From NCBI GenBank assembly GCA_964515785.1, contig CAZEWH010000001.1:11730-75729 (forward strand): a DNA stretch of 64,000 nucleotides, written 5' to 3'. The first letter of the stretch is position 1; each line of letters opens with the position of its first letter. Made by a program: the position numbers and the translations under genes. Source of the DNA: an uncultured Gammaproteobacteria bacterium. GTDB lineage: Bacteria; Patescibacteriota; Patescibacteriia; UBA1558; GWA2-36-10. The notes beneath the pieces are model-generated. The model made no database searches and was not told the origin of the DNA. It worked only from the letters and a program-made list of their open reading frames with translations. Positions 12,864-23,859 of the stretch are shown here, in pieces.

Positions 12864-13553
12864 ATGAAAAGCAAAAAAAAGAAAATTTTAGGATTTTCTA
12901 TAATAGAATTAATGGTTATTATTGGTGCAGTTGGTGTTGTATTGGCTGTGACTGTTTCATATGTCAATCCACTAAAACGTGTCGGAGAATCTAATGATTC
13001 TGTTCGTTGGTCAGATGTTGAAGAAATAGCTCAAGCTCTAGAGCTCTATGCTATAGATAATAGTCAGATACCGGATGATTTTTCTACTCCTATTATAGCG
13101 GTAGACGAAAAACATGTAATCTGTGATTCAGCAGATTCTTTGACTTGTGATGGTGATACCAATGATTGTTTGGTAATAGACGATACAGATTTTTTGGCTT
13201 ATATTGATGACTTGCCAGTTGATCCAGATAAGACAGACACATCTGATACTGGTTATTATGTATTAAGAAAAGAAAATCAGGGTAAGATAGCTATTGGAGC
13301 TTGTGATCCTTATGGATCTACTGCTATTGAAGTTATAGCTCGAGCTGCTTTTTCAGTAGGTTGCGGCAATGGAGTCTTGGAAGAAAGTCTAGGTGAAGTT
13401 TGTGATAGTACTTTTACATCACTATGCAGTGATCCTAGTCAGGAGGGCTGGGGTTTTGGTGACTATGTAAGTAATACTGATTGTAAATCACCTAATGATG
13501 TCTGTAGTCCTGATTGTACTGAGTGTGACGTTGCTTGTATTGGAGGACCATAA
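12864..13553 (+). CDS. type IV pilin-like protein with prepilin N-terminal motif and Cys-rich C-terminal domain (paralogue 1)
   Basis: 229 aa; class-III signal GFSIIELMVII (G/F cleavage site, E at +5); about 14 Cys in C-terminal half. Confidence 0.75.
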   Translation: MKSKKKKILGFSIIELMVIIGAVGVVLAVTVSYVNPLKRVGESNDSVRWSDVEEIAQALELYAIDNSQIPDDFSTPIIAVDEKHVICDSADSLTCDGDTNDCLVIDDTDFLAYIDDLPVDPDKTDTSDTGYYVLRKENQGKIAIGACDPYGSTAIEVIARAAFSVGCGNGVLEESLGEVCDSTFTSLCSDPSQEGWGFGDYVSNTDCKSPNDVCSPDCTECDVACIGGP

Positions 13554-13566
13554 ATTTTGAATAAAT

Positions 13567-14253
13567 ATGTCTAATTTTAAAAATAAGAGATCTGGTTTTT
13601 CTATGATAGAGCTCATGGTCATTATTGTTGGTATTGGTATTTTGTTAGCCATAACTATTTCTTATATCAATCCCTTAAAAAGGATTGGAGAGTCCCGTGA
13701 TGCTCGTCGTTGGACTGATGTAGAATTATTAACTCAAGCTATAGAGCTTTATAGCTTGGACAATGATCAGATTCCTTCTGATTTTTCTGATGCAGTCATA
13801 GCAGTAGATGAAAAGTATGTGATCTGTGATTCAGCAGATTCTTTGATTTGTGATGGTGATACCAATGATTGTTTGGTAATAGATGATGCAGATTTTTTGG
13901 CTTATATTGATACTATGCCAATAGATCCTGGCAAGAGTAGTGTGGCTGATACTGGCTATTATATGACCAGAGAAGAAGATCAAGGTAAGATAGCTATTGG
14001 AGCTTGTGATTCTTATGGTAGTGATCTCATTAAAATTATTTCTAGAGCAGCTTTTTCAGTAGGTTGCGGCAATGGAGTTGTAGAAGAAAGTTTGGGTGAA
14101 GTTTGTGATAGCAATCAAACACAGGTTTGCGATAATCCTGCTGGCTATTATGGAGGTGACTATGTAGAAGATGGTTCAACCTGTAAAATAAATGATGGTT
14201 GGTGCAATAGCACTTGTACAGCTTGTAGCTCTTCTTGTATAGAAGAGGGTTAA
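13567..14253 (+). CDS. type IV pilin-like protein with Cys-rich C-terminal domain (paralogue 2)
   Basis: 228 aa; GFSMIELMVII; about 60% identical to upstream paralogue with divergence concentrated in last 60 residues. Confidence 0.75.
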   Translation: MSNFKNKRSGFSMIELMVIIVGIGILLAITISYINPLKRIGESRDARRWTDVELLTQAIELYSLDNDQIPSDFSDAVIAVDEKYVICDSADSLICDGDTNDCLVIDDADFLAYIDTMPIDPGKSSVADTGYYMTREEDQGKIAIGACDSYGSDLIKIISRAAFSVGCGNGVVEESLGEVCDSNQTQVCDNPAGYYGGDYVEDGSTCKINDGWCNSTCTACSSSCIEEG

Positions 14254-14300: not shown

Positions 14301-14358
14301 TTGATTTACCTGCCTGCCGGTAGGCGGGTAATTTTTAGTCAATTATGGTATAATTTAA

Positions 14359-14739
14359 TTGATGACACAAAACGTTATAATTCAAGCTTTTAAATCTTTT
14401 GTAATTGATTTACTAAAAGAAGTTTTATATTTTCCTATTTGGTGGTATACCGCTGGCCTTAAAAGAACTATTTTATATATTTGGAATGGTATAGTTGGTA
14501 GTTTACGTAATTTGTCATTGCCAATTATGTTTAAAAATCTTTTTAAGCCAATGTTTGGTCAATACGATCGTGAGGGTCGGATTATTAGCTTTTTTATGAG
14601 GATTATTTTGACTATCAGTCGTTCGGTAGCTTTTATTTTCTTTGTTATTTTCTATATTTTATTATTAATAGCTTGGATTGTTATACCAATTATTGTTATC
14701 TGGGGCATAGTAAATAATTTGCAGCTCATATGGAAGTAA
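14359..14739 (+). CDS. hypothetical small polytopic membrane protein, translationally coupled to ClpC-like gene
   Basis: 126 aa; 10-nt overlap with downstream ORF. Confidence 0.5.
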   Translation: MMTQNVIIQAFKSFVIDLLKEVLYFPIWWYTAGLKRTILYIWNGIVGSLRNLSLPIMFKNLFKPMFGQYDREGRIISFFMRIILTISRSVAFIFFVIFYILLLIAWIVIPIIVIWGIVNNLQLIWK

Positions 14740-17417
14740 TCAAATTCCAACAATGTGATAAGTGTCAAGGCAAGGGCTTGATAGATAATCGTAAATGCGA
14801 AGCCTGTTTTGGATTTAAGAGTTTTTATTTTTCAAATAACAATTTTCTTTTTTGGCAAGACAAGATAAATTATGCTCAGATTTTTATTCGGGAGTTCAAA
14901 CAGACTATCAACATGTTGGTCAATACTTTATTGATCTTGGGTGCTATTTTTACTTTAGTCTTGATTTATATTATTTTAAATAAGGTTCAATTTGATCCTC
15001 GCAACTTATGGGCTTTTATAACTGACGTTCATCGATACAATCTGTGGTTGTTTATTATGATTGTCTTGGATATGTATTTGTATTATCGTTTGACTATTCC
15101 TACTATCAAATCTAAAAACAAATTTAGTATTTTAAAAAATAAAAATTCTTTTGTAAAACATAATATTGCTGACAATTTGAGTCAGGAAGCTAGACGGATT
15201 ATTGATCGAGCTTGGCTTTATGCTCATCACAAAAAAGTCTGGCCAGTCACATCTTGGCATGTTTTGTATGTTTTATTTGATGACAAGGATATTCGTTTAG
15301 TGTTGGCTCGTCTGGGCTTGGGAGCAGACAATCTAAAAAATAAAATAGACCAAGATATAGCTCAATTAGCTAAACAGTCAGAGCCAGGTAAAGGTTTGAC
15401 ACATACTATCAAAGAAGCATTGCTAAATGCTTATTTTCATATGCATGATCGTCAAGCTCAGACTATTGCTGAAGTTGATTTGTTGTTTGGTTTAGCTGTG
15501 TCTAGTCAAGGTGTCAAAAATTTCTTTTATGATTTTGATATTGATGAACAAAAAATCAACAATGTTGTTGCTTGGATTAAAATAAATAATTTATTAAAAC
15601 GACGTTATCAACGTTTTCGTTCCAAATCATTTTTAAAACCAAAAGGTGATGTTAATCGAGCTTATACAGCTATAGCTACTCCGATTTTAGATTCTTTTTC
15701 TCAGGACTTTACCAAGATGGCTAGAGCTGGATATTTACCTCTTTCAGTAGCTCGAGAAAAAGAGATTGACGAAGTTCTCAATACTATTGAAAGTGGTCAA
15801 GATTCTGTAGTGCTGGTCGGTGACCCAGGAGTAGGTAAGGGCAATATTGTCGAAGGTCTAGCCAATCGTATGATGGCTGAAGAAGTACCTTTGTTTTTTC
15901 AAGACAAACGCTTGGTGAGTGTTTCTATACCATTATTGATTTCTGGGGCCACTGGTACAGGTAAATTGGAGGAAAGATTTATAGCTCTACTCAATGAAGT
16001 AGCAGTCTCTGGAAATATTATTTTATTTATCGATGATATCCATAATCTAGCTGGTGTATCTTCTGAGGGGACTGAAGGGGTTGATCTTTCAGAAGTTTTA
16101 GCTGCTGAAGTACGCAAACACAATATTATTGTGATTGGTGCAACCAACAGCAAAGAATTTGTTCAATACATAGAAGGCAAGGCTCTTGGACAGGCCTTAA
16201 AAAAGATAAATATCTTAGAACCAGATAAAAATCAAGCTATTCAAATCATGCAAGCACATGTTGGTCATGTAGAAAATAAACATCATGTTTATTTTACTTA
16301 TGATGCTTTGGAAAAAATTTATGATTTAGCTGGTAGATATATTACTGATCAAGCTTTACCAAAAAAAGCTATCGGACTAATGGATGAAGCTGGTATTATG
16401 GTAGCCAAAGCTGGTCGTCAAGATAAATTAGTTAGAGGTGAGGATATTGCATCTTTAGTTAGTCATAAGACCAACATACCATTGACACAAGTTACAGCTA
16501 AAGAATCGACTAAATTAATGAATTTGGAAGAAGAAATTCATCAGCGTATCATTGGTCAAGATGAAGCAGTCAAGCTAGTATCAGCTGCCCTGCGTCGCGC
16601 TCGAGCTGAGTTGCGAGACCGTAAACGACCAATAGTAAATCTATTATTTTTGGGTCCAACTGGTGTGGGTAAAACAGAACTTGCCAAAACTGTAGCGGAA
16701 AAATATTTTGGTGATGAACAAAATATGATCAGACTGGATATGTCAGAATATCAGACTCAAGCTAGCTTGCCGCGCTTGATTGGTTCACCACAAAATTCTA
16801 CTCCAGGTTTATTGACTGAAGCTGTCCGTCACAAACCATTTGCTTTGCTGTTGCTTGATGAAATAGAAAAAGCTCACCCAGAAATACTTAATATCTTTTT
16901 ACAAATTATGGAAGATGGTCGTTTGACTGATGCTTTGGGTCGGACTGTTGATTTTACCAATTTGATATTGGTAGCTACTTCCAATGCTGGTACATCTTAT
17001 ATTCAAGATCAGATAAATGCTGGCCGGCAGATAGATGACTTTAAAGATGATTTGATAAAAAATCAAATTAGAGATATTTTTGCTCCAGAATTTATCAATC
17101 GTTTTGATGGTACAGTAGTTTTCCGGCCACTTACTCAAGATGAGATTTTTAAGATTGCTGGTCTGATGCTAAATAAAGTTAGAAAGCGTTTAGAAATCAA
17201 AGGCATATTTTTTGAAATTACAGAAGATGCTCAATGGGAGTTGGCTAGAGCTGGTTTTGATCCAGTCTTTGGCGCCAGGCCTTTGCGTAGAGTGATCCAA
17301 GACAATGTAGACAATGCTTTGGCAAATTATTTATTGACTGGCAAGATTGGTCGTCGTGATACAGTAGTCTATGATGAGGGTGGCAAGATCAGTGTCAAAA
17401 AAGCCAAAGGTTACTAA
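14730..17417 (+). CDS. ClpC/ClpB-like double-ring AAA+ chaperone with N-terminal DnaJ-type zinc finger and two TM helices
   Basis: 895 aa; CDKCQGKG and CEACFGFK (CxxCxGxG x2); two hydrophobic helices; two Clp_N repeats; NBD1 Walker A GDPGVGKGN (Thr replaced), Walker B FIDDIH (E to D); NBD2 canonical GPTGVGKT / LLLDEIEKA; no IGF/VGF-type ClpP loop seen. Confidence 0.85.
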   Translation: MEVIKFQQCDKCQGKGLIDNRKCEACFGFKSFYFSNNNFLFWQDKINYAQIFIREFKQTINMLVNTLLILGAIFTLVLIYIILNKVQFDPRNLWAFITDVHRYNLWLFIMIVLDMYLYYRLTIPTIKSKNKFSILKNKNSFVKHNIADNLSQEARRIIDRAWLYAHHKKVWPVTSWHVLYVLFDDKDIRLVLARLGLGADNLKNKIDQDIAQLAKQSEPGKGLTHTIKEALLNAYFHMHDRQAQTIAEVDLLFGLAVSSQGVKNFFYDFDIDEQKINNVVAWIKINNLLKRRYQRFRSKSFLKPKGDVNRAYTAIATPILDSFSQDFTKMARAGYLPLSVAREKEIDEVLNTIESGQDSVVLVGDPGVGKGNIVEGLANRMMAEEVPLFFQDKRLVSVSIPLLISGATGTGKLEERFIALLNEVAVSGNIILFIDDIHNLAGVSSEGTEGVDLSEVLAAEVRKHNIIVIGATNSKEFVQYIEGKALGQALKKINILEPDKNQAIQIMQAHVGHVENKHHVYFTYDALEKIYDLAGRYITDQALPKKAIGLMDEAGIMVAKAGRQDKLVRGEDIASLVSHKTNIPLTQVTAKESTKLMNLEEEIHQRIIGQDEAVKLVSAALRRARAELRDRKRPIVNLLFLGPTGVGKTELAKTVAEKYFGDEQNMIRLDMSEYQTQASLPRLIGSPQNSTPGLLTEAVRHKPFALLLLDEIEKAHPEILNIFLQIMEDGRLTDALGRTVDFTNLILVATSNAGTSYIQDQINAGRQIDDFKDDLIKNQIRDIFAPEFINRFDGTVVFRPLTQDEIFKIAGLMLNKVRKRLEIKGIFFEITEDAQWELARAGFDPVFGARPLRRVIQDNVDNALANYLLTGKIGRRDTVVYDEGGKISVKKAKGY

Positions 17418-17440
17418 ATTATATTTTTATTAAAAAAAGA

Positions 17441-17469
17441 AAAAAGGAACAGAATACTGTTCCTTTTTG
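17441..17469. terminator. bidirectional intrinsic terminator (AGGAACAG-AATA-CTGTTCCT flanked by A-run and T-run)
   Basis: 8-bp stem; A10 upstream, T5 downstream. Confidence 0.75.
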
Positions 17470-17473
17470 ATTT

Positions 17474-17689
17474 TCAAGTATTGACTTGCATAGAAAGCCA
17501 ACGGTCTAGCACGCTGCGCAAAAAGCGCCAATCACCACCGACTTTTTTGGCCGGGATCTTACCTTCTCTGGCTAGACGACAGACTGTCTTTGTGTGCATC
17601 TTGAGATATTCGGCTGCCTCGACAGCGTTAAGGACAGGGGGAGGAGTAGAGGTATGATGGCTTAGGTGCCCCTGATCATTATTGGTCAT
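17474..17689 (-). CDS. excisionase-family helix-turn-helix DNA-binding protein (GC-rich, strong SD)
   Basis: 71 aa; AVEAAEYLKMHTKTVCRLAREGKIPAKKVGGDWRF matches Xis/MerR-superfamily excisionase HTH; SD AAGGAGA 6 nt upstream of ATG; about 50% GC. Confidence 0.7.
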   Translation of the reverse strand: MTNNDQGHLSHHTSTPPPVLNAVEAAEYLKMHTKTVCRLAREGKIPAKKVGGDWRFLRSVLDRWLSMQVNT

Positions 17690-17744
17690 AATTATCTCCT
17701 TGAAAATGATGCATTTTAGTGAAAGAGCTTATTAAAACAATTGT

Positions 17745-17774
17745 ATTAAAGCATTTAATATGTTTTTTTGTCAA
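17745..17774 (-). promoter_or_regulatory. promoter TTGACA-N18-TTTAAT for excisionase-family gene
   Basis: minus-strand TTGACA (plus 17769-17774), TTTAAT (plus 17745-17750). Confidence 0.5.
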
Positions 17775-17794
17775 CCTGCCTGCCGGTAAGCAGG

Positions 17795-17926
17795 AAATAA
17801 AAAGGGCCCCGTCGAGATGATCTCGACGGGGCTTCAGCACCCCTGCTGCACCAGCTTGCTTTACCTTCTTGCGGAGGCGTAAAGGCTGGTATTTTTATTT
17901 TAGCAGTTATTTTGATTTTTTGTCAA
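17795..17926 (-). ncRNA. mini-cassette U1: promoter TTGACA-N18-TAAAAT, ~95-nt GC-rich structured RNA, perfect terminator (GCCCCGTCGAGA-TCA-TCTCGACGGGGC + U-run)
   Basis: minus-strand -35 at plus 17921-17926, -10 at 17897-17902; 5' hairpin ACCAGCCUUUAC..GUAAAGCAAGCUGGU; terminator stem plus 17806-17832, A-run 17795-17803. Confidence 0.4.
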
Positions 17927-18042
17927 AAGAAAAAGGGGACCTCACTAGAGATCCCCCGAGAAACGAAGTAGTCGTCTTCATATTGCCAATCGGAGTTTCC
18001 GATTAGCATATTTATTGTATTATTTATATAAAAAGTAGTCAA
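17927..18042 (-). ncRNA. mini-cassette U2: promoter TTGACT-N17-TACAAT, ~80-nt structured RNA, terminator GGGGAUCUCUAGUGAGGUCCCC + U-run
   Basis: -35 at plus 18037-18042, -10 at 18014-18019; 5' hairpin AAUCGGA-AAC-UCCGAUU; terminator plus 17935-17956. Confidence 0.4.
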
Positions 18043-18055
18043 GAATTTAAGATAA

Positions 18056-18227
18056 AGAAAAAGGGCTCTACCGAAGTAGAGCCCCTGTCGAAAGCGGCCA
18101 TACAGGCCCCTCGTACCTGCGGTCTCGCAGAGTCATCCTGTTACCTCCTGCTGGAGGTGCGCCGTGTCGGTTCGCTGTGTACAGCGAACGCAATATTAAT
18201 TGTATAGATAATTTAGTGTTTTGTCAA
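18056..18227 (-). ncRNA. mini-cassette U3: promoter TTGACA-N17-TACAAT, ~135-nt structured RNA with four perfect hairpins, terminator GGGCUCUACUUCGGUAGAGCCC + U-run; contains SD-preceded 22-codon ORF
   Basis: -35 at plus 18222-18227, -10 at 18199-18204; hairpins GUUCGCUGU/ACAGCGAAC, CCUCC/GGAGG, CUGCG/CGCAG; AGGAGGU-N6-AUG (ATG at 18136, stop 18068) encodes MTLRDRRYEGPVWPLSTGALLR; SD lies inside the CCUCC/GGAGG hairpin. Confidence 0.4.
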
Positions 18228-18250
18228 TTCTGCCTTTGGATGGGACAAGC

Positions 18251-18279
18251 TTGATAAATACCTTGATTTTAGCTATAAT
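18251..18279 (+). promoter_or_regulatory. promoter TTGATA-N17-TATAAT for glyQS
   Basis: TTGATA 18251-18256, TATAAT 18274-18279, about 38 nt upstream of ATG. Confidence 0.6.
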
Positions 18280-18316
18280 TTGTGTGTTAATAAGTATATA
18301 AATTTATTATTTTTTT

Positions 18317-19989: not shown

Positions 19990-21567
19990 ATGAAAAAAGT
20001 ATTATTAATTTTGAGCCTATTTATTTTATTAGCTCCAAGTATTTCTCAAGCCGCTCCAGCAGAATCAAGGCTTAGAGGTATGATTTTACTACAAGTAGAA
20101 GACTACGGTAAAGCTTGGTATGTTCATCCTGATGAAGGTACTAGAATGTATATGAAAGACGGTGATGCAGCCTATGGTATGATGCGGGATTTAGGGCTTG
20201 GCATTACCAACGCTGATCTAGCAAAAATACCCATTGGTGTTGAAGAAAGATTCGAATGTCTTGATAATGACAATGATGGACTTTGTAATAAATTAGAAGA
20301 AGGTTTGGGTACTGAAATAGATGTAGTTGATTCAGATAATGATGGTTATTATGATGGTACAGAAATACTCAATGGGTATGATCCACTTGGTCCTGACAAA
20401 CTCATTTATGATAATTCTCTTGTTAATCGATTAAAAGGAAAGATATTATTGCAAGTAGAAGAACGTGGCCAAGCTTGGTATATCAATCCCCAAGATAATA
20501 AAAGATATTATATGACAGATGGTCCAGCTGCTTATGAGATAATGAGATATCTTAGTTTGGGTATTAGTAATACTGATATAAATAAAATTAGTATTTATGG
20601 ACAAGTACAATGGGAGTCTTATACCAATCAGGAATATGGTATAGCTTTTGACTATCCACCTGACTGGCCTGTACCTGTTGTGGATGCAGATGGTGAATAT
20701 TCAGATGGCGGATATCCGCAAGGAGAACATTCACTTTGGTCAATGGATTTAGGAGAGGAGTATTTAGATAATGGGGGTCCTGGTTATATTTATACTTTAA
20801 ATGCTTATAATCCTAAAGATCCTGCTCAGGTGGTCGAGGATTTTGAGAATGATAGTTTAATAAGCATAGTAAATGATACTGTGTTCAATGACACTAGAAT
20901 GATTTTTTATACCGAAGGTGGTATTTGTGGTTTTTATAATGTCTTTATCTTTGGTGATAATTATAGTATCAAGCTTAAATCAGTTTGTGGAGCCGATAGT
21001 CAAGAAAGAACTGGTATGACGGAAGATATAGCAAGGACTTTTCGATTTATAGATCAAGATGTAGTAATAGATTGTGGGAGTGTTGTAACGCAAGAAGATT
21101 CTTGGGATAATCCGTCTAATTATGATTGTTTTATAGCTGCTTCACAAGATTGTCAATTAGCTGAGTTATCCAGTACAATGTCAATAATTTTTGGCATGGC
21201 TATTACTGCTACAACTAATATGCAATTAAAAGGTTTAGAATCAGATAAGTGTGCTTACGTTCAAGAAGTTGAGAGTTATAATGTAGAATTTACTGATGAA
21301 TATGTACAAGAAATGTTAGATGGGGGTTCTACTCAAGAAGAAATTGATCAAGCAGAACAAGAAGCTAATGATAGTGCTCAAGATTTAGTTGGTGTAGAAT
21401 TAACATGTAAATTTGAACAAGATGATTTAACTGCTATGTTAAGTAGGTGGAAGACAGGTGAATTTCACGGTGGTACAAGCTGTCAACTTAATTTTGATGG
21501 AGGAGAACATGATTGTGAATATACAGGAGATTTTGAAGGTGCACAATGTGAGTATAATTGGGAATAA
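19990..21567 (+). CDS. secreted protein with duplicated ~110-aa module and DxDxDG calcium-binding-like loops
   Basis: 525 aa; signal peptide MKKVLLILSLFILLAPSISQA; internal repeat (ESRLRGMILLQVEDYGKAWYVHPDEG / NRLKGKILLQVEERGQAWYINPQDN); DNDNDGLCN and DSDNDGYYDG; Cys-rich C-terminus. Confidence 0.6.
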   Translation: MKKVLLILSLFILLAPSISQAAPAESRLRGMILLQVEDYGKAWYVHPDEGTRMYMKDGDAAYGMMRDLGLGITNADLAKIPIGVEERFECLDNDNDGLCNKLEEGLGTEIDVVDSDNDGYYDGTEILNGYDPLGPDKLIYDNSLVNRLKGKILLQVEERGQAWYINPQDNKRYYMTDGPAAYEIMRYLSLGISNTDINKISIYGQVQWESYTNQEYGIAFDYPPDWPVPVVDADGEYSDGGYPQGEHSLWSMDLGEEYLDNGGPGYIYTLNAYNPKDPAQVVEDFENDSLISIVNDTVFNDTRMIFYTEGGICGFYNVFIFGDNYSIKLKSVCGADSQERTGMTEDIARTFRFIDQDVVIDCGSVVTQEDSWDNPSNYDCFIAASQDCQLAELSSTMSIIFGMAITATTNMQLKGLESDKCAYVQEVESYNVEFTDEYVQEMLDGGSTQEEIDQAEQEANDSAQDLVGVELTCKFEQDDLTAMLSRWKTGEFHGGTSCQLNFDGGEHDCEYTGDFEGAQCEYNWE

Positions 21568-21588
21568 ATTATTTAAAATAAAAATTAT

Positions 21589-23859
21589 ATGATGGAGGAA
21601 AATTTTAAAGAAGAAAGAATAGAAGAAGAGCAATGGACTTGGTCACCAGCCAAGATTTTGGCTTGGATAGCTGTTGTAATTGTGGCTGTTGTGATTGGTG
21701 TGTTGTGGTGGATGAACGCCAATATGATAGTTGATCCAGTATTTGATAATACTAATCAGAATAATGTAGTAGATGTTGTAGATTGTAATGACATCACTGA
21801 TGAAGCAACTTGTTTGGATCGTAGTGATTGTGTAGCTGTAGATACTAATTCTTGTTTTACCAAAATGAGACAGGCTGGAAAATGTAATATAGCTGTAGAC
21901 TATTTATGTACAGAAGATACTAGTTTTGATCGTTGTGAAGATTTGAATTGTGATACTTATGATTTTGATGAAGAAATTACTTGGCAGACTTATAATGATA
22001 GTAGATATAATTTTAGTTTTGATTATCCTGAAACTTGGTATGCTTATGGTTTAAGTGAGTTGGAGGAATATACAGTAATTATATCATCAGATATGTCGAA
22101 TTCAGATGATGATTTATGGGGTATAGAGATTTATGACTTATCAGATATTGATATTGAAGGAATAACTGCTGAAGCTTATATTAATCTTATTATAGATAAT
22201 ACAGGGTCTGAATTTTCGCCATATCGTGATGAGGTAAGAAAAAATGTAGAGTTCAATGGTATTGAGGCCTTGGAGGTTATTGTTACAATGGATGAAGAAG
22301 GTCCAGAAATACTTAGTGGTTGGTACCAGAGAACAATTATTTTTGAACATGAAGACACTATATTTGTGTTTAGTAATAATAATGTTAAAGAGTTTGATGA
22401 TATATTTACAAGTATTTATCAAAGTTTTAAATTTACAGATCAAGAATCAGATTGGCAGACTTATGAAAATACAGATTATGGTTTTAGTTTTGATTATTCT
22501 TCAGATTATATTACGAGGATTCATGAATATGAAGATTATTTTATTGTTGATTTAGCCATAGCTGAAGATAGTATTTGGATGATCAGTATTAAGGTTAAAG
22601 AAAATGTAGATAACCAGAGTCTTGATCAGTTGGTTGAAGAAGGGCGGAGAGCTGGTTTTGAGTTTGAAATTACTGATGTTATTATTAGCGGTCAAGAAGG
22701 AAAAAAATATTCAAGGCCAGATTATGATGGTTATGGCAACACAGCTGCTATTGTAATATTTGAAGATAATATTTTTACAATTGAAGGTAATGATAAGCCT
22801 AGTGACCTAAAAAGTATTTTTGAAAAAACTTTGTCTAGTTTCCAATTTACAGATCAAGAATCAGATTGGCAGACTTATGAAAATATTTGGGATCCAAATC
22901 ATTCCGGTCCTGGTGGCCAATTAGATATTGCTTTTCAATTTGATTATCCAAATAATTGGCAAGTTACTGGTGATGGTTCTGGAAGATATTTGAGACCTGT
23001 TGATGGTTCTAACAGTATTTTTGCAGATATTTATCCAAAATCTAAAGAGTCTTATGATGGTTATAAATATCATAATCCAGATAGCTTTATCAGTGATTAT
23101 ATAGTACATGAAGCTATGTATTCATGCGAAGCAGATGGGCATGGGGGTAGTGTACATTGTGAAGAAGCCTTGATTGTTGAACAGGGAGTGTCTGATCATG
23201 GTATTACTTATCATAAATTAGGTATGACAGAAGTCTCGATTCGTGTTGAAAATGATTGGCAAGAGGAAAAAAGATATAGAGGACCTGTTTATGCTTTGGA
23301 AGTAAGTGAATTTACTAATGGTGAATATGAAATAATTTTTCTTTCCCCAAGGGGAGAGGGTATAGGTGATGAAGGATTGAATGATATTTTTATAGGTATA
23401 GTAAATAGTTTCCAATTCACAGATCAAGAAGAAGACATAGGAGATACACAAACTTACATAAATCAAGAATATAGTATTAGTTTAAATTATCCAATGTCTT
23501 TTTATATGCAAGAAGAAAGCTCAGAAGAAGTGTTGTTTGATTCAGACGAAGGACATTTTTGGTTTAGAATAGCTGACAATGAAGACAATCTTGATGCTCA
23601 AGGCATAATGGATTTTTATTATGCTAATGATGGTTATGGTTATCAATATGAAGATAGTTTTGTGACAATAGCTGACATCAATAGCTATAAGCAAGGTCGT
23701 TATGATCTTGGTATTATAGAAAATTATTTCATTCCATCAGGAGATCAAGTTTTTAATCTTTCTTTTGAATTTAATTTTGATGAAAATAATACAGAATTAT
23801 TTGATGAATATTCACAAATAATTTCAGATATTATAAATAGTTTTGTTTTTATTTATTAA
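21589..23859 (+). CDS. large membrane-anchored repeat protein (four copies of FQFTDQESDWQTYEN..GFSFDY module)
   Basis: 756 aa; N-terminal TM helix; Cys-rich segment then four ~150-aa repeats. Confidence 0.6.
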   Translation: MMEENFKEERIEEEQWTWSPAKILAWIAVVIVAVVIGVLWWMNANMIVDPVFDNTNQNNVVDVVDCNDITDEATCLDRSDCVAVDTNSCFTKMRQAGKCNIAVDYLCTEDTSFDRCEDLNCDTYDFDEEITWQTYNDSRYNFSFDYPETWYAYGLSELEEYTVIISSDMSNSDDDLWGIEIYDLSDIDIEGITAEAYINLIIDNTGSEFSPYRDEVRKNVEFNGIEALEVIVTMDEEGPEILSGWYQRTIIFEHEDTIFVFSNNNVKEFDDIFTSIYQSFKFTDQESDWQTYENTDYGFSFDYSSDYITRIHEYEDYFIVDLAIAEDSIWMISIKVKENVDNQSLDQLVEEGRRAGFEFEITDVIISGQEGKKYSRPDYDGYGNTAAIVIFEDNIFTIEGNDKPSDLKSIFEKTLSSFQFTDQESDWQTYENIWDPNHSGPGGQLDIAFQFDYPNNWQVTGDGSGRYLRPVDGSNSIFADIYPKSKESYDGYKYHNPDSFISDYIVHEAMYSCEADGHGGSVHCEEALIVEQGVSDHGITYHKLGMTEVSIRVENDWQEEKRYRGPVYALEVSEFTNGEYEIIFLSPRGEGIGDEGLNDIFIGIVNSFQFTDQEEDIGDTQTYINQEYSISLNYPMSFYMQEESSEEVLFDSDEGHFWFRIADNEDNLDAQGIMDFYYANDGYGYQYEDSFVTIADINSYKQGRYDLGIIENYFIPSGDQVFNLSFEFNFDENNTELFDEYSQIISDIINSFVFIY

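Follow-up and report, generated by a model that had tools for sequence, protein, structure and literature searches.

A gene at positions 14730–17417 (+) of a 64,000-nucleotide stretch of contig CAZEWH010000001.1, referred to here as the window, encodes an 895-residue AAA+ ATPase that is, by fold and domain content, a member of the class I Clp/Hsp100 superfamily. The gene overlaps by 10 nucleotides with an upstream gene for a small membrane protein, and the two constitute a self-contained two-gene operon conserved across Patescibacteria, or the Candidate Phyla Radiation (CPR). The ATPase represents a real, widespread and undescribed Hsp100 subfamily. We give a probability of about 0.5 to the reading that it is a ClpP-independent, single-motor, membrane-embedded Hsp100 that acts with its small partner to remodel or extract membrane-associated proteins. 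An earlier sequence-only reading of this DNA had described a membrane-tethered, zinc-finger-bearing machine with one active ring that is co-transcribed with a small membrane protein and does not conform to the standard form of either ClpC or ClpB. The analyses described below support that architecture and extend it to an entire protein family.

Clp/Hsp100 machines are known from textbooks as soluble, two-motor unfoldases that use tyrosine paddles. The family examined here departs from this model by carrying a membrane anchor, by relying on a single active ring, by having shed most of its pore tyrosines, by closing the known route of ClpP docking, and by its tie to an uncharacterised membrane protein of 125 amino acids. 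It is conserved across hundreds of species in a huge, poorly understood radiation of ultra-small bacteria, and genes that persist in genomes as tiny as theirs tend to be important ones. The family offers a natural experiment on what an Hsp100 protein is capable of once D1 hydrolysis and aromatic pore loops are gone. It may also be a prokaryotic analogue of the still-enigmatic torsins. Database labels that present family members as ClpC or as ClpP partners need correction.

Domain organization of the ATPase

The open reading frame (ORF) comprises 895 codons without interruption. From the N-terminus to the C-terminus, its product is arranged as a putative four-cysteine (C4) zinc knuckle, a two-helix membrane anchor, a predicted Clp N-domain of divergent sequence, a degenerate first AAA+ ring (D1) and a second AAA+ ring (D2). 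Pfam matches to AAA (E = 3e-23) and AAA_lid_9 (2e-13), followed by AAA_2 (1e-51) and ClpB_D2-small (3e-22), delineate the two tandem AAA+ modules of class I Clp/Hsp100 proteins. Five NCBIfam equivalog models score below their cutoffs, namely ClpB (562 versus 1232), ClpA (519 versus 993), ClpV (TssH; 427 versus 885), ClpK (480 versus 1900) and ClpG (467 versus 1900). The ClpB model yields the top NCBIfam score, yet it remains under its cutoff and aligns to the protein in two pieces. Peptidase_M41 is not matched by the ATPase in Pfam, and the C-terminus is formed by the ClpB_D2-small domain.

Motifs were assigned at the level of single residues from a HMMER alignment of the ATPase to Bacillus subtilis ClpC. 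Residues 558 and 559 align to ClpC residues 402 and 462, such that about 60 ClpC residues are skipped and the M-domain is absent. In ClpC, this short coiled coil is the site for the adaptors MecA and McsB. The same alignment places no insertion between D1-small and D2 that would correspond to the long M-domain of ClpB. The sequence-only reading, which had reported that a long M-domain is lacking, was therefore correct, and even the shorter version found in ClpC is missing. Its second negative claim, that there is no IGF, VGF or LGF tripeptide for ClpP docking, is likewise borne out, because the V-G-F of ClpC falls opposite A764-G765-R766 and an [LIVM]G[FLM] tripeptide occurs in 0 of 151 family members. 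The stretch from sensor-1 to FRPEF is instead ClpB-like in length and character, and forms a conserved helix-loop of fixed length across the family.

A structure model of the full-length ATPase, for which the family alignment served as input, has a predicted local distance difference test (pLDDT) score of 87.7 and a predicted template-modelling (pTM) score of 0.77. The model presents, in order, a beta-rich segment (residues ~7–41), a helix (48–85), a short helix (90–98), a further helix (102–136), a disordered linker (~132–140), a helical N-domain and two AAA modules. Its D1-D2 core superposes on substrate-bound, active ClpC protomers with a template-modelling score of ~0.9 and a root-mean-square deviation of ~3.3 Å. 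Despite this resemblance in fold, the protein does not display the defining features of ClpC, ClpA, ClpB, ClpE, ClpV or FtsH.

D1 is a degenerate ring

The D1 module (residues ~341–565; 15750–16424, +) reads as a degenerate pseudo-ATPase. Its Walker A motif GDPGVGKGN (residues 364–372) lies opposite GEPGVGKTA of ClpC, which places Gly371 at the position of the Thr. The Walker B segment ILFIDDIH, with IDD at residues 434–436, lies opposite ILFIDELH, and Asp436 takes the position of the catalytic Glu. Both of these substitutions had been recognized from the sequence alone, and the alignment through them is in register, with no intact Walker residues at offset positions. The description of D1 as a crippled ring holds, but the damage exceeds what had been claimed, as the pore tyrosine and both arginine fingers are also lost. 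Specifically, the pore-loop stretch TGTGKLE aligns to KYRGEFE with Gly409 at the Tyr position, and the arginine-finger stretch GQAL aligns to ERRF with Gln488 and Ala489 at the two Arg positions.

The frequencies of these motifs in the family were counted in a MAFFT alignment of the top 150 HMMER representatives, and a curated alignment of 69 members was used in addition. A Ser or Thr after the Walker A Lys of D1 is kept in 68 of 149 members, and a Walker B DE in only eight of 149, where ED, EN, DN and DD dominate. An aromatic residue in the D1 pore loop is found in 16/149 members and the RR finger in 13/149. The P-loop glycines (G364, G367 and G369), by contrast with these hydrolysis residues, are invariant or nearly so. 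Judged from sequence, such a pattern would be expected of a ring that binds nucleotide without hydrolysing it. Dead rings of this type are familiar from NSF (D2) and PEX1/PEX6 (D1), in which one ring keeps the nucleotide-binding glycines, but not the residues for hydrolysis, and serves assembly. These double-ring AAA+ proteins offer an analogy only, as they are members of another AAA clade. The literature searched contained no Hsp100 protein with a D1 ring that is dead by nature.

D2 retains its catalytic motifs but not an aromatic pore loop

The D2 module and its D2-small domain (residues ~606–895; 16545–17414, +) carry an intact Walker A motif (GPTGVGKT), Walker B motif (LLLDE), sensor-1 Asn (N752, in TSN), Arg finger (R791, in PEFINR) and sensor-2 motif (GARPLRR). 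Conservation of these elements in the 69-member alignment is close to complete: Walker A and the sensor-1 Asn are present in 69/69 sequences, the Walker B DE in 68–69, and the Arg finger and the sensor-2 Arg in 68 each. With every ATPase motif in place, D2 is predicted to be canonical in catalysis, but not in its grip on substrate.

This distinction arises from pore loop 1 of D2 (residues 685–693, GSPQNSTPG; 16782–16808, +), which falls four residues short of the canonical GxPPGYVGYxxGG and contains no aromatic residue. It sits where ClpC has GSPPGYVGYDEGG, with the Tyr missing and a four-residue deletion. Across the family, this loop is 40% glycine, varies from 4 to 14 residues in length, lacks a consensus, and includes an aromatic residue in 27 of 151 members. 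The pore-1 loops of both rings appear from these alignments to be unconstrained. The sequence-only reading had called this second ring canonical, which is accurate for Walker A and B, sensor-1, the Arg finger and sensor-2, but not for pore loop 1. Similarly, its label of ‘unfoldase’ implies classical threading, an implication that is weakened by the scarcity of aromatic residues in the pore-1 loops of both D1 and D2. In this lineage the two loops are Gly-rich and non-aromatic, so that the ATPase, if it grips substrate at all, would have to do so in a non-classical way.

The N-terminal region and its membrane anchor

Residues 9–30 (CDKCQGKG...CEACFGFK; 14754–14819, +) lie within a small beta-rich module (residues ~7–41) and form a putative zinc knuckle, for which C9, C12, C23 and C26 are the predicted ligands on the basis of sequence and model. 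These are the sole cysteines of the ATPase. Two CxxCxGxG motifs had been claimed for this region; the first (residues 9–16, CDKCQGKG) is an exact match, and the second (residues 23–30, CEACFGFK) is CxxCxGxK and matches only in part. C12 does not vary across the 69-member alignment, in which C9, C23 and C26 each reach at least 90% conservation, and it is because of this conservation that we do not regard the motif as a chance occurrence. The CxxC...CxxC pair is present in about half of the family (72 of the 140 members with a complete N-terminus).

The ‘DnaJ-type’ designation given to this element in the sequence-only reading is appropriate for the motif, but not for a Pfam domain. The first 60 residues match DnaJ_CXXCXGXG (PF00684) with 20 bits (E = 8e-4), below the cutoff of 32.7 bits, and the match spans positions 42–63 of the 65 in the profile, which corresponds to one DnaJ zinc centre. 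Two CxxCxGxG-type motifs separated by ~10 residues, as found here, equate to one such centre, whereas the cysteine-rich domain of DnaJ has four motifs and two centres. The ATPase also has no J-domain.

Two transmembrane (TM) helices follow the knuckle. The first (residues ~62–85; 14913–14984, +) is strongly hydrophobic, with a Kyte-Doolittle (KD) hydropathy of 2.5, and lies within the 48–85 helix of the model. The second (residues ~102–123; 15033–15098, +) is weaker by hydropathy, and the cause of its lower score is a conserved Asp that belongs to the family motif FW-S-L-D-Y--YR (D114, Y119, R120). The earlier claim of two TM helices is thus firm for the first, and for the second it finds its support in family conservation and the AlphaFold model rather than in hydropathy. 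At least one N-terminal TM segment is present in all 140 members with a complete N-terminus, and 82 of these have two. A Lys-rich segment occurs just after the second helix. Because there are two TM helices, the zinc knuckle and the ATPase should reside on the same side of the membrane, and this side must be cytoplasmic. The face formed by the N-domain and D1 would then adjoin the membrane.

The predicted Clp N-domain (residues ~151–300; 15180–15629, +) is divergent, and the Pfam Clp_N model scores 16.7 bits against a cutoff of 20.7. The N-domain of ClpA nevertheless aligns continuously from residue 151/157, and this region is modelled as a confident helical domain.

A widespread Patescibacterial family

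A word-indexed search with the N-terminal 330 amino acids found only four partial relatives, and it was an exhaustive HMMER search that revealed the family. It comprises at least 150 clusters at 50% identity, nearly all of which align end to end (residues ~5 to 893), and every named member is from Patescibacteria. Identity to the query is highest in the large domain of D2 (61%) and declines through D1 (40%) and the N-domain (23%) to the TM region (16–22%). The identical protein is encoded on eight independent contigs, the longest of which are 329–371 kb. Its closest named relatives are from Candidatus Komeilibacteria, and the two-gene module is found in Komeili-, Parcu-, Buchanan-, Magasanik-, Falkow-, Jackson- and Kerfeldbacteria, with outer family members extending to Saccharibacteria.

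Public annotation pipelines name these proteins ‘AAA family ATPase’, ‘ATP-dependent Clp protease ATP-binding subunit’ or ‘ClpC’. The curated models of Pfam and NCBIfam cover neither the N-terminal module, nor the partner, nor the family as such. The literature searched did not describe a membrane-anchored Clp/Hsp100 protein or this CPR family, and the clp genes mentioned in a transcriptome paper on TM7x are mostly those of the host.

Two observations on database records concern this family. A 3.5-kb contig in ENA (P0001) encodes a predicted protein of 541 residues that, over its first ~344 residues, shares 83% identity with the N-terminus of the ATPase in the window and then runs on into a peptidase_S9/DLH-type hydrolase. 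It is most likely the product of a chimeric assembly and not a true fusion. In addition, many GTDB representative records (third-party annotation, TPA; L019, L024, L027, L032–L035 and others) are titled ‘uncultured Gammaproteobacteria bacterium’ and carry the CPR-specific gene pair in CPR-type synteny. Their organism label looks like a placeholder or an error.

The small membrane partner and the operon

The upstream gene (14362–14739, +) encodes a helical membrane protein of 125 amino acids. Homologues and gene callers agree on the ATG at 14362 as its start and not on the TTG at 14359 given in the sequence-only reading, whose 10-nucleotide overlap with the ATPase gene (14730–14739) is correct. 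Invariant residues of the partner are P25, W27, W28, G32, P63, M64, D69, S76, F77, R80 and P109, which lie largely in two motifs, LYFPxWWY and KPMFGQYDxxGRxISFxxR. An AlphaFold model (pLDDT 91.5) consists of two long helices (residues 5–50 and 70–124) joined by a conserved loop. Foldseek comparison with the PDB returned a best match of only E = 2, and there is no match in Pfam, NCBIfam or PADLOC. The 1,484 clusters of the partner family are all annotated as ‘hypothetical’, none has a Pfam domain, and the named sources are all Patescibacteria.

The association between the two genes was observed from both sides. Among six related loci reached from the ATPase (33–56% ATPase identity), all six have a homologous small ORF directly upstream, including one in which this ORF had not been called (L007) and one in which all other neighbours differ (L009). 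For the survey from the side of the partner, one genome per species was used; the partner was found in 333 genomes, and 80 of these loci were fetched. A Clp-like gene is located directly downstream of the partner in 71 of the 80, or in 71 of the 75 that are testable, since five misses are due to contig ends. The two genes overlap or are separated by no more than 12 nucleotides in 60 of these 71 loci. The partner is a near-obligate, translationally coupled neighbour of the ATPase. The four real misses are L048, L059 and the Jacksonbacteria loci L074 and L080, in which no Clp-like gene adjoins the partner; the next gene in L074 is that for RuvA. In these four genomes, the ATPase may be encoded elsewhere, or the small protein may have a function of its own.

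Sequence elements flanking the pair mark the limits of the operon. A terminator-like hairpin with a T-run (14306–14331, +; 11-bp stem, five GC pairs, TTTTT tail) follows the second of two pilin-like genes located upstream, and divides these from the two-gene module. A perfect extended -10 promoter element, TGgTATAAT (14346–14354, +), lies 7 nucleotides upstream of the ATG of the small ORF, and a Shine-Dalgarno sequence is not visible in the 14346–14364 region. From this spacing, the operon mRNA is probably leaderless or nearly so. After the stop codon of the ATPase gene, an inverted repeat flanked by A and T runs (17435–17474, strand not assigned) is a probable bidirectional terminator that would close the operon.

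Comparison with known AAA+ systems

ClpC proteins (from B. subtilis and Staphylococcus aureus, and ClpC1 of Mycobacterium tuberculosis) lead the PDB matches both by sequence (E = 1.8e-134) and by structure, with 40–43% identity over the superposed D1-D2 core and the same order of N-domain, D1, D2 and D2-small. Relative to ClpC, the ATPase is without the M-domain coiled coil, the VGF loop, the D1 Glu, the D1 Arg fingers and the pore Tyr of either ring, and it has gained the N-terminal zinc knuckle, the TM hairpin and the small membrane partner. ClpA resembles the ATPase in having no M-domain and aligns in a single continuous piece (query 151–874 to ClpA 2–725), but it is a soluble protein with an IGL loop for ClpP, two active rings and aromatic pore loops. 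ClpB and Hsp104 share with the ATPase the lack of a ClpP loop and a similar stretch from sensor-1 to FRPEF. They differ in that they are soluble, couple to DnaK through a long M-domain, and have two active rings in which the pore tyrosines are essential.

ClpE and ClpX likewise begin with a C4 zinc module, and a ClpE structure (29hb) is among the PDB matches. ClpE, however, keeps its ClpP loop and active rings, whereas the ATPase has a DnaJ-type CxxCxGxG pair followed by TM helices. FtsH and Msp1/ATAD1 are similar in that they are hexameric AAA+ proteins with an N-terminal membrane anchor and an entry face directed toward the membrane, an arrangement suited to the extraction of membrane proteins. 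Neither is a Clp/Hsp100 double ring, and both have aromatic pore loops; FtsH carries an M41 protease domain, and Msp1 is a single ring.

Torsins with their cofactors LAP1 and LULL1 present a further parallel. Clp/Hsp100 proteins depend critically on aromatic pore loops to unfold substrates processively, and the lack of such loops is among the traits that distinguish torsins. Like the ATPase, torsins are Clp/Hsp100-derived AAA+ proteins that associate with membranes, lack aromatic pore loops and have a membrane-protein cofactor. Unlike the ATPase, they are eukaryotic, luminal proteins with a single AAA module, and their Arg finger is supplied by the cofactor. D2 of the ATPase appears catalytically self-sufficient (R791 in 68/69 sequences), and the partner is small and helical rather than AAA-like in fold.

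A proposed mechanism and its alternatives

In the mechanism that we favour, the ATPase would form a hexamer with 12 TM helices at the inner face of the membrane, and the entry face formed by the N-domain and D1 would be directed at the membrane. D1 would act as a nucleotide-stabilized assembly ring, as in NSF-D2 or PEX1/6-D1, leaving D2 as the sole motor. The small partner would make physical contact with the ATPase, and the zinc knuckle may be an element for binding clients, for binding the partner or for oligomerization. ATP hydrolysis by D2 would serve to remodel, extract or release proteins that are embedded in the membrane or lie close to it, with no handover to ClpP and no coupling to DnaK. 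We count in favour of a joint function of the ATPase and its partner that their pairing persists in L009, where the other neighbours differ. Several findings weigh against this mechanism. The missing aromatic pore loops in both rings would oppose threading or extraction, by analogy with torsins, and we consider threading of substrate by the ATPase doubtful. Moreover, the partner has no recognizable fold or family and so gives no functional clue, and, apart from the pair itself, conservation in the neighbourhood is confined to housekeeping genes, which hint at no pathway. Finally, ClpP is encoded in the same lineages and is located ~4 kb upstream of the module in five of the 80 loci.

The absence of aromatic pore loops could also mean that translocation has been abandoned altogether, and that D2 is an ATP-driven switch that regulates or reshapes the small partner or the envelope, rather than a motor for unfolding. 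This possibility draws on the Gly-rich, variable and apparently unconstrained pore-1 loops, on the obligate membrane partner, and on the shared Clp/Hsp100-like ancestry, membrane association and cofactor dependence of torsins, and yet D2 retains its own Arg finger and all catalytic motifs, the Clp N-domain and double-ring body are kept, and the 27 members with PG[YF] in D2 leave room for threading in parts of the family. We regard such a torsin-like machine as a tentative alternative. Its more specific form, a CPR counterpart of torsins in which a dead D1 assembly ring supports a non-threading switch that acts on the cofactor and controls an envelope or membrane process of the CPR core, is one that we would entertain with equal reserve. 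A quite different proposal is that the protein is a membrane-bound ATPase of ClpP, amounting to an FtsH-like protease made from separate parts. Such an assembly would agree with the public names of the family, with the widespread occurrence of ClpP in Patescibacterial lineages that carry the module, with its location on the same strand in the five loci noted above, and with one such genome that has no ClpX gene closer than 10 kb to ClpP. We nevertheless find it improbable given the consistent absence of the docking tripeptide, which is replaced by the ClpB-like helix-loop, and given that the adjacency is lineage-specific, with RNase Y, rnpA, yidD and yidC intervening. Although the exit face of D2 would be free if the N-terminus resides in the membrane, no docking mode is known that dispenses with the loops.

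A role as an accessory motor for pili, secretion or membrane insertion, with type IV pilins or YidC substrates as clients, was suggested by the two pilin-like genes directly upstream in the window and, in one sub-lineage, by rnpA-yidD-yidC directly upstream. The pilus or secretion link proposed in the sequence-only reading is not supported as worded: the terminator-like hairpin lies between the pilin-like genes and the operon, pilin-like neighbours occur in only 24 of the 80 loci and YidC in five, and the gene pair persists in wholly different contexts. We rejected pilin and YidC linkage as conserved features on these counts, and we consider an accessory motor of this kind very unlikely. The most conservative interpretation, that the protein is an ordinary ClpC or ClpB whose peculiarities are alignment artefacts, or a decaying pseudogene, has only the generic Clp annotation in databases to recommend it. 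It is effectively refuted by substitutions that stand in register, by scores far below the equivalog cutoffs, by the intact ORF and its identical copies on independent contigs, by near-invariant D2 motifs, and by the same architecture in the full set of clusters. A defence-system function was also rejected, as the PADLOC matches to the ATPase are generic AAA matches and vertical housekeeping synteny argues against it.

Genomic context and additional features of the window

The window as a whole is ordinary CPR housekeeping territory, with genes for tRNA synthetases, RecO, tRNA-guanine transglycosylase (TGT), F-type ATPase, GyrB, Der, and M16 and M17 peptidases. Besides the pilin-like, YidC and ClpP genes counted above, neighbours of the pair in the 80 loci include TGT (36), DUF11 proteins (33) and glycyl-tRNA synthetase (GlyRS; 24). 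All of these neighbours other than the partner reflect lineage synteny only. No genes of a type VI secretion system (T6SS) are present in the window or the related loci, and no ClpP gene is present in the window. In the sub-lineage represented by L046 (JAQTOB010000001.1) and L091 (a 517-kb JGI contig), the gene order is RbfA-ClpP-RNaseY-rpmH-rnpA-yidD-yidC-PRC-partner-Clp (PRC denotes a PRC-barrel protein), which places a stand-alone ClpP gene 4 kb upstream, between those for RbfA and RNase Y.

The pilin-like genes upstream of the operon (12864–13553 and 13567–14253) are tandem paralogues of ~229 amino acids with the type IV pilin-like N-terminus GFS[IM]IELMV. The Pfam N_methyl match is weak, and their Cys-rich C-terminal halves share GCGNGV-EESLGEVCDS.

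No tRNA gene was detected with ARAGORN in positions 1–64000, and no Rfam family reaches its gathering threshold there, despite the gene-dense housekeeping character of the region. Two large ORFs at 19990–23859 (525 and 756 amino acids) occupy the stretch of highest GC skew in the window (0.33). Pfam gives almost nothing for either, its one hit being a marginal PsbP_2 match in the second; at least the first has a signal-peptide-like N-terminus and is Asp/Gly/Glu-rich.

Downstream of the operon, 630 nucleotides on the minus strand (17690–18316) are without a gene, and neither ARAGORN nor Rfam returned anything credible for this region, which is not conserved in the related loci fetched. It contains three tandem units of promoter and terminator. 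Near-consensus -35 elements (TTGACA/TTGACT) are located at 18227, 18042 and 17926, and strong GC-rich hairpins (18086–18061, 17957–17934 and 17832–17806) occur 80–140 nucleotides after the promoters. The promoter region is a threefold direct repeat, and the units look like small-RNA genes.

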